Assembly: GCA_003140275.1 (NCBI GenBank)
Contig: PLJQ01000364.1
Location: 6,518 to 44,409, forward strand
Length of the DNA: 37,892 bases
Direction of reading: 5' to 3'
From: Limisphaerales bacterium
GTDB taxonomy: Bacteria; Verrucomicrobiota; Verrucomicrobiia; Limisphaerales; PALSA-1396
Made by a program: the position numbers and the translations under genes. The notes beneath the pieces were generated by a model. The model saw only the letters and a list, made by a program, of their open reading frames with translations, ran no database searches and was not told the DNA's origin. Shown here piece after piece: positions 21,730 to 21,985 of this stretch (position 1 is its first letter; each line of letters begins with the position of its first letter).

Positions 21730-21985
21730 GTCAACGACGCGCCAACGACCGTTGCCGCAAGTTCCAACGATTTTCCAAACGAAAGCCGCCGCAGCGATGC
21801 CGCAGCGTCCAACGATTTTACCAACGACGTTTGCCGCAGACTTCCACGATGTTCCCACGACCGTTGCCGCAAAGAACGCCGCAGCGTCCAACGATGGTTG
21901 CCGCATGGTTCAACGAAACGCGCCGCAGAAATGCCGCAGCCGCCAACGACCGCCGCCGCAGGAACACCGCCACCGTGTCCCGCAG
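21730..21985 (+). repeat. About 22 consecutive 11-bp units carrying either (C/T)CAACGA or (T)GCCGCA(G/A): an iteron- or centromere-like lattice
   Basis: CAACGA-type cores lie at 21732, 21743, 21765, 21776(var), 21810, 21822, 21844(var), 21855(var), 21889, 21911 and 21944. GCCGCA cores lie at 21754, 21788, 21799, 21833, 21866, 21878, 21900, 21922, 21933 and 21955. All sit on one lattice with an ~11-bp period. ORFs are open in all six frames, as expected for repeat DNA rather than a gene. Confidence 0.8.

Follow-up and report, generated by a model that had tools for sequence, protein, structure and literature searches.

In iteron plasmids such as R6K, RK2 and P1 (incC/incA), and at the ori/crr sites of P4, phased tandem direct repeats lie beside the initiator gene. 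Extra iteron sets in such plasmids can act in copy control, and P4 pairs its integrase with an initiator, a primase-helicase, whose binding sites are short repeats. The bind locus of pMV158 carries a hairpin nick site near three 11-bp direct repeats recognised by an HUH Rep initiator. Units of 11 bp also make up the R1 parC centromere, where each unit accommodates one dimer and sets of five units flank the par promoter. The contiguous parC repeats form two separate sets that are coated by ParR (PMC2241845). An 11-bp register is likewise found in E. coli oriC, where 9-bp DnaA sites lie 2 bp apart and are filled cooperatively from a high-affinity anchor (PMC6727663). Here we describe a dense array of 11-bp units, which we call the lattice, in a stretch of 37,892 nucleotides (the window) from a Limisphaerales bacterium contig (PLJQ01000364.1, positions 6,518 to 44,409; assembly GCA_003140275.1). 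Within a small integrative element, the lattice falls in the main non-coding region, 1.24 kb upstream of a gene for a putative primase-ATPase replication initiator, and follows directly upon a conserved palindromic anchor.

Anchor "X3", 21699..21729, plus strand: ACGCCTGACCTCTAACGTACGTTAG and 5 further bp, immediately 5' of the lattice
Lattice, 21730..21985, plus strand: 21 contiguous 11/12-bp units (21730-21960) and one further B-type unit

A single 11-bp register with two classes of unit

The lattice is composed of A units, (C/T)CAACGA, and B units, (T)GCCGCA(G/A). We scored core ends with A = C[AC]A(A)CGA, a pattern that includes the variants CCACGA and CAAACGA, and B = [GCT]CCGCA, taking the last base of each core. 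Read in this way, the units follow the order AABAABBAABAABBABABBAB, with one B beyond a gap; this extra unit has the core TCCCGCA at 21978-21984, past a 24-bp gap after unit 21. Successive units are spaced by 11 bp in 17 cases and by 12 bp in three. The core positions listed in a preliminary description of this DNA hold when 11-mers are read from 21730, and so does its proposal of helical phasing, since the 11/12-bp spacing places all cores in one phase. That description also saw two interleaved motifs. There are indeed two core types, but they do not form separate interleaved motifs: A and B cores share one phase and their alternation is not strict, showing that the structure is a single 11-bp register with two alternative unit classes rather than two interleaved arrays. 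An 18-nt B-A composite, TGCCGCAnnnnYCCAACGA, occurs six times, 22-45 bp apart.

The proposed period of ~11 bp was confirmed by three measures. The spectrum peaks at 11.3 bp with a power of 6.83, against 1.72 +/- 0.48 (maximum 3.79) in dinucleotide-preserving shuffles, none of which reached the observed peak (0/2000). Rayleigh R for the units is 0.976 at 11.2 bp, and autocorrelation is maximal at lags of 11/12, 22, 33/34, 45 and 55. Nowhere else in the 37.9-kb window is a 9.5-13-bp periodicity as strong. Tandem Repeats Finder reported only a 33-bp period covering part of the lattice, and internal higher-order repeats measure 33-45 bp; a stacked-11-mer scan of information content proved too insensitive for two-class lattices. 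CAACGA and GCCGCA are confined to the lattice within the non-coding region, and the CAACG that it has in common with the TCAACG repeats further upstream is not a significant overlap.

Cores and register are retained while units come and go

We compared the window with its closest relative, L163 (related loci are designated by L and a number), in which the primase is 93% identical and the helix-turn-helix (HTH) regulator identical. The non-coding region of L163 is 92% identical to that of the window, homology starting at ~21207, and its lattice has ~20 units, again of classes A and B, arranged in another order. Alignment of the two lattices reveals insertions or deletions (indels) of 34, 10, 11 and 1 bp, unit-sized and frame-breaking. 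Mismatches affect 4 of 113 core positions (3.5%) and 21 of 99 spacer positions (21%; Fisher p = 7e-5), figures from a single pairwise alignment, which for repeats is ambiguous and biased towards aligned cores. The unit-sized indels and the better-kept cores indicate that units have been gained and lost while cores and register were retained. Sequence comparison thus indicates that the cores are under selection and that the lattice is non-coding. Together the results establish the lattice as a genuine feature, extreme in statistical terms and maintained in evolution.

It is extremely improbable that a repetitive protein or a functional RNA is encoded here. Across 21730-21985, four of six frames lack stops, a number never reached in 2000 shuffles, and in L163 a gene caller set an 89-amino-acid open reading frame (ORF) on the lattice. 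The open frames arise because the repeat units themselves are stop-free. The earlier statement that all six frames are open is incorrect, as two minus-strand frames hold one or two stops each. Against coding, the indels that separate the window from L163 break every frame, and an 11-bp unit is not a multiple of the codon. Against an RNA, the lattice has no Rfam match and folds no better than shuffled sequence (z = +0.95 and -1.46 on the two strands). We therefore reject both roles on frame-breaking indels, lack of an Rfam match and ordinary folding; the lattice is neither a gene nor a structured RNA, and the earlier view of it as repeat DNA stands. L163 also has a disrupted version of an ORF that lies upstream of the lattice, and it does not keep the small ORFs of the non-coding region, owing to a premature stop and 1-bp indels.

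Palindrome and array recur in related elements

A conserved palindromic site, CACGCCTGACCTCTAACGnnnGTTAG, at 21699-21724, precedes the lattice by a few bp; within X3 the palindrome CTAACGnnnnGTTAG occupies 21710-21723. X3 with the same flanks and an 11-bp array behind it occurs in L082, L085, L088, L130, L142/144/146, L158, L159, L163 and L166. In all, palindrome and array are present in 12 further loci (~nine distinct elements); the primases there share 44-93% identity with that of the window. The array after the palindrome counts 6-10 units in the relatives and ~20 in L163, against 21 in the window, and its first unit ends 14-16 bp past GTTAG, a near-constant register across relatives. On this comparison the window lattice is an expanded version of an array common to related elements after the same palindrome. 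In L158, a small circular element, palindrome and array fall within the only large non-coding region. The palindrome is intact in L130, a 24-kb contig in which the element is apparently integrated, as well as in circular contigs, indicating that it is not a recombination crossover site.

The motifs themselves differ among elements. Units of TCCGA/GGACGA/TTACGA types occur in L082, L085, L142, L159 and L166, TTGCCAG/TTATCAG/TTTGAAG types in L130 and L158, and GGACAG in L088. Read by eye, the sequences fall into two broad unit classes, with CGA and CAG as their respective ends, and the register of one class relative to the other is fixed wherever they recur. Thus, of the possible conservation of the lattice in homologous elements, the anchor and the 11-bp array hold, whereas motifs and unit order do not. 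Several relatives carry other multi-motif lattices of ~11 bp: L024 has ~33 units built from ~five motifs, with a 55-bp super-repeat, L130 a GGCACA/GGCAACG array, L085 a GTCC lattice of ~25 units and L082 a 12-bp lattice. Across 104 loci, strong ~10-13-bp periodicity is more frequent ahead of the primase gene than within it (power >4 in 15% of loci upstream and 1% inside; Wilcoxon p = 1e-8). Neither the lattice pattern nor the palindrome had a match in a viral collection.

The putative replication module and a proposed role for the lattice

The preliminary description placed the lattice in a small integrative element near a primase/helicase. This agrees with the gene module found here:

Cro/CI-type HTH regulator, 141 amino acids, 22366..22791, minus strand (Pfam HTH_3, E = 1.6e-16)
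p131, small conserved protein with a core of ~85 amino acids, 22822..23217, plus strand, directly upstream of the primase gene
Primase-ATPase fusion, 1045 amino acids, putative replication initiator, 23225..26362, plus strand (domain searches)
XerC-like tyrosine recombinase, 26408..27568, plus strand (Pfam Phage_integrase, 2e-39)

The fusion consists, in order, of a CHC2 zinc ribbon, a Toprim domain (DnaG-type primase), a disordered linker and a Walker-A ATPase half (PF27228, named MTBMA_p00010_2nd). In the structure model the primase part is good and matches DnaG strongly in the PDB; the ATPase half is modelled at low confidence with a weak AAA+ match, and a PDB sequence search with it gave no match. 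A winged helix is predicted at the C-terminus (~residues 878-951) from the order of secondary-structure elements alone. A 21-bp repeat at 26156-26209 encodes KFEG/KLEG repeats in the disordered tail of the protein. In many loci (L001, L002, L028, L031, L033, L046, L051, L052, L059, L060 and L102) a G-rich hexamer (GGTCGG, GTCGGG) recurs five to seven times within 65-90 bp, where the primase gene ends or just downstream.

For p131 we found 324 homologues and no Pfam domain; its structure model is all-alpha, with no PDB fold match at E below 1. The HTH regulator has an RstR/DicA-like match below the cut-off. The HTH and p131 genes diverge across a gap of 30 bp in which lies, at 22793-22814, the palindrome AATTAC-N10-GTAATT, kept in L088 and probably the operator of the HTH regulator. 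The recombinase scores 433.8 bits with NCBIfam NF002331 (cut-off 371) and has a SAM-like core-binding and a catalytic domain but no arm-binding domain.

Homologues of the primase number more than 5,900. Genome and metagenome scans yielded 159 loci in Verrucomicrobiota, Acidobacteriota, Pseudomonadota, Myxococcota, Planctomycetota and other phyla, and some metagenome-assembled genomes hold several copies of the element. Primase and integrase genes occur together in most of these loci, and the HTH gene in ~60%. Eight contigs that carry the HTH/primase/integrase module are circular, measuring 6.6-11 kb with terminal overlaps of 63-141 bp (L004, L012, L024, L042, L068, L121, L146 and L158). Furthermore, an 11,289-bp plasmid of Lonsdalea populi (NZ_CP072857.1, L167), with a primase of 51% identity, has HTH, primase and XerC as its sole replication-like genes, making the primase fusion a plausible plasmid initiator. 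Its cargo comprises a RelE/DinJ toxin-antitoxin pair, SymE and a nuclease/immunity pair; an unannotated gap at 6553-8875 probably holds a second, degraded primase copy. Genes for a TrwC-type relaxase lie within the non-coding region of L160 and L164. From 8940 on, L085 holds a second, relaxase-carrying element of the same family in tandem (L164 from 251), whose TrwC gene is interrupted by an insertion sequence with an rve-family transposase gene and an AAA ATPase gene. L142 (6880-7397) and L146 (5527-5655) belong to elements that are 99.9% identical and differ only in the toxin C-terminus and the next gene, the switch point falling directly after a WPNRDPIGE motif; judged from these sequences, this is polymorphic-toxin cassette exchange on a mini-plasmid. 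The family looks like a set of integrative, sometimes mobilisable, plasmid-like elements with toxin cargo. A few limited literature searches found no paper describing it.

By analogy with iteron replicons, we tentatively read the lattice as an iteron-type array of putative protein-binding sites in the replication or copy-control region of the element, a role it may well have, though we stop short of calling it probable. Protein binding, the identity of the binder and a start of replication at the lattice are all what we infer. The palindrome at 21699-21724 would be recognised by a conserved protein surface, for which the predicted C-terminal winged helix of the primase-ATPase is the foremost candidate. 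More protomers, or else an accessory factor, would then load cooperatively onto the adjoining 11-bp units, which offer a site at every helical turn on the same face of the DNA. With a period of 11.2-11.3 bp, the product would be a gently writhed nucleoprotein filament. Such a filament could help DNA opening and helicase loading, as at an origin, or could titrate or pair initiator molecules in copy-number or incompatibility control. The conserved palindrome is the natural partner of a conserved protein surface, and the variable units may need only a loose consensus and correct phasing. In favour of this reading we count the extreme and strict phasing, the better-kept cores, the recurrence of palindrome and array in relatives, the excess of periodicity ahead of the primase gene, the circular contigs and the Lonsdalea plasmid with their shared module, the placement of palindrome and array in L158, the Walker-A ATPase half and possible winged helix of the fusion, and the parallel with oriC. 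The length of 21 units may reflect an expansion for copy control or, in part, neutral slippage.

Other parts of the non-coding region and neighbouring genes

The ~1.17-kb stretch that holds the lattice, 21192-22365, has no supported gene. It includes, beside anchor and lattice:

Left part of the non-coding region, 21207..21460, plus strand: site X1, short arrays, the AT-richest 60 bp and ATGACACCAACCCC
A-rich tract, 21986..22031, plus strand: bounds the distal end of the array and ends in the palindrome GGAAAAGaccGCTTTT
Conserved structured non-coding region, 22032..22365, no strand assigned: between the lattice and the stop codon of the HTH gene

In the left part, site X1 (21216-21243) is followed by short 10-11-bp arrays at 21260-21365, first of TGCGC type and then of TCAACG type. 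The interval 21261-21400 is the best-kept part of the non-coding region (98.6% identical to L163). Adjoining the short arrays are the AT-richest 60 bp (21390-21450, G+C 0.37), and the conserved motif ATGACACCAACCCC lies at 21447-21460. The X1 consensus, CAGACATCTyyCCTwAGCrsAGCT, always follows toxin/immunity cargo, with copies in L082 (3283), L130 (8973), L137 (749), L149 (2071), L159 (87), L085 (8943) and L164 (251). In L082, L130, L137, L149/L150 and L159 it precedes a short 11-bp array of TTGCGC type. Its reverse complement resembles the right arm and flank of an inverted repeat upstream of the TrwC relaxase gene of L164; on this likeness X1 may be an oriT or nick-like site.

The motif at 21447-21460, in the form ATGACAC(C/T)(A/T)ACCCC, is kept in many relatives. 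In L130 the element-like sequence breaks inside similar ATGACAC..ACCCC motifs at both ends (~2575 and ~9160), which makes the motif a candidate attachment core; the window would then show the unrecombined arrangement. A search of the window for second copies of X1, the palindrome and the ATGACAC..ACCCC motif gave none. A 13-bp repeat at 22027 and 30788 was considered as a pair of attachment sites and rejected, being at chance level.

Distal to the lattice, the A-rich tract has an AT skew of +0.75 and a G+C content of ~0.6, and its small palindrome lies at 22010-22025. The same GGAAAAG..CTTTTAG motif stands 3' of the array in L130, L163 and L166. The structured region beyond it contains a hairpin with a 12-bp stem (22143-22182), in which one stem pair is changed on both sides in L163 and L130, and a G+C-rich hairpin at 22294-22336. 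Its inverted arms TTTAGCCGC and GCGGCTAAA (22184-22198 and 22348-22362) are 149 bp apart in the window and abut in L130. Folding of the region on the minus strand gives z = -2.2.

Downstream of the recombinase gene lies the cargo:

Toxin-like protein, 27603..28199, plus strand: N-terminal ~75 residues (to ~27826) conserved, C-terminus variable

DNA homology to relatives stops within this gene, at ~27826-27837. We rejected the idea that it is the displaced tip of the RHS gene upstream, as the two share no similarity. That gene (11620-20607, 2995 amino acids), an RHS/YD-type giant toxin gene, stands beside the non-coding region and is followed by an ORF of 193 amino acids (20610-21191) with no Pfam hit, presumed from its position to be the immunity gene of the RHS toxin. 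A further giant secreted-protein gene (1147-6960) carries 153- and 183-bp tandem coding repeats at 1240-2394.

Weighing an origin or copy-control array against other functions

Several observations weigh against an origin or copy-control array. Motif type does not track the primase in any of its segments: L166 (primase 87% identical to that of the window) and L082/L085 (81-84%) share TCCGA/GGACGA-type units with L142 (45%), and the predicted recognition helix of the winged helix is identical in elements with different motifs. Likewise, the HTH regulator of L088 is 93% identical, with the same recognition helix, yet the array there is of GGACAG type. The core of p131 is too conserved to account for the motif differences, and we rejected p131 as a ribbon-helix-helix or other DNA binder, given an all-alpha model with no recognisable DNA-binding fold. 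A search for the binder by co-variation, covering the primase by domain, the HTH regulator by recognition helix and p131 across the family, thus produced no protein that tracks the motif, and a simple model of primase-specific iterons is not supported. L166 is mosaic, its array, structured region, HTH gene and primase gene each having different nearest relatives, indicating that simple linkage does not explain the motif pattern either. The same reading is weakened by the ambiguity of the core-spacer alignment and by base composition: what adjoins the lattice is the A-rich tract, at a G+C content of ~0.6, rather than a strongly AT-rich unwinding element, and the AT-richest 60 bp lie 280 bp upstream. 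The short arrays and AT-rich 60 bp at 21260-21450 could be an alternative origin, in which case the lattice could be a second, copy-control set. Furthermore, 21192-22366 has no match to the DnaA box TTATCCACA at up to one mismatch (one at two mismatches); a DnaA-box array is rejected on this ground. Finally, the Lonsdalea plasmid has no comparable array, indicating that arrays are not required by every family member.

Other functions were weighed on the same evidence. The lattice might serve stability or silencing. Coated by a small protein of the element or the host, its sites would form either a centromere of the partition type or a complex that represses or insulates between cargo and replication operon. 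A coating protein would suit two unit classes in variable order, relatives hold several separate arrays with different motifs, which is more than one origin needs, and contiguous 11-bp iterons are typical of R1 parC/ParR. However, no ParM/ParA/ParR-like or ribbon-helix-helix protein occurs among the element proteins scanned (Pfam, NCBIfam, PHROGs), the small ORFs of the region are lost in L163 and, unlike parC, the lattice flanks no promoter; we consider this function rather unlikely. That the array is largely a neutral expansion, in which slippage or unequal recombination lengthened a functional array of 6-10 units and left the majority of the 21 without a role of their own, is quite unlikely in our judgement. 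It would account for the usual 6-10 units of relatives, for the whole-unit indels and unkept unit order relative to L163 and for the 33-45-bp internal repeats, but cores have stayed at 96.5% identity while spacers drifted to 79%, the window and L163 lineages both keep ~20 units and long lattices are kept independently elsewhere (~33 units in L024, ~25 in L085).

Very unlikely, finally, are architectural sites for other DNA transactions, either an intasome of the XerC-like recombinase or a relaxosome, with the relaxase acting in cis in some relatives and in trans here. The attachment site of the element must fall in the same ~1.2-kb non-coding region, TrwC-type relaxase genes occupy that region in L160 and L164, and X1 resembles one arm and the flank of the inverted repeat upstream of a relaxase gene. 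Yet the recombinase has a SAM-like core-binding domain only, the apparently integrated L130 and the circular copies alike keep the palindrome intact, 270-525 bp separate the lattice from the candidate core ATGACAC..ACCCC, and 21 sites far exceed known intasomes or relaxosomes. Lambda-type att arms in particular, which go with an N-terminal arm-binding domain of the integrase and lie no more than ~150 bp from the core, are unlikely, given the lack of such a domain and the unchanged palindrome.

Returning to an origin or copy-control array, a bolder version is possible, albeit doubtful: an undescribed architecture in which a palindromic anchor and an 11-bp track of two to five interchangeable unit classes, up to ~33 units long, carry a filament of the primase-ATPase or a partner, and a unit "barcode" sets compatibility among co-resident elements. 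If the lattice is a replication or copy-control site, it would be the cis-acting component of a type of replicon met very commonly in soil and peat metagenomes, one that carries polymorphic toxin/immunity cassettes and, in some cases, relaxases. Such elements could give plasmid vectors for Verrucomicrobiota and Acidobacteriota, phyla now without genetic tools. A long track with one site per turn, several unit classes and a conserved anchor would also be a clean test case for the spreading of an ATPase initiator or coating protein on DNA.

Comparison with known systems

The preliminary description could not match the lattice to a described system, and literature searches confined to the element type, to 11-bp iterons with primases and to the comparison systems bear this out: they gave no system that matches 11-bp units of several classes in one register, with a palindromic anchor and up to 21-33 units. 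It had also mentioned R1 parC-type centromeres. Both have contiguous repeats, but those of parC form two sets, whereas the lattice is uninterrupted and contains no promoter-like site. Moreover, parC needs adjacent parM/parR genes, and no ParM/ParR/ParA-like gene is present among the element proteins scanned, so that this comparison does not hold. pMV158 resembles the element in that its short 11-bp direct repeats have a conserved hairpin or palindrome nearby; it differs in having three repeats and an HUH Rep, a domain that is absent from the element proteins scanned, where the replication protein is a primase-ATPase fusion.

E. coli oriC offers an analogy of mechanism only, with one site per 11 bp, one orientation, an anchor site and an ATPase initiator. 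Its array has four sites, and the units of the element do not resemble DnaA boxes, although some relatives carry TTATCCGAA-type units that agree with the box at 7 of 9 positions.

Iteron replicons differ from the element in their units, classically 17-22 bp rather than 11 bp; the element has up to 21-33 contiguous copies, at least two unit classes per register and a conserved palindromic anchor. Its motifs do not co-vary with the putative initiator, a point counted above against an origin. The initiator itself, a DnaG-type primase joined to a PF27228 ATPase, contrasts with the winged-helix Rep of iteron plasmids and with P4 alpha. With P4 the element shares the combination of an integrase and a primase-type initiator, and with iteron replicons in general it shares phased tandem repeats in a non-coding region beside the putative initiator gene of a small replicon. 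Helically phased arrays of binding sites in replicon control regions are a known general kind, and the lattice belongs there.

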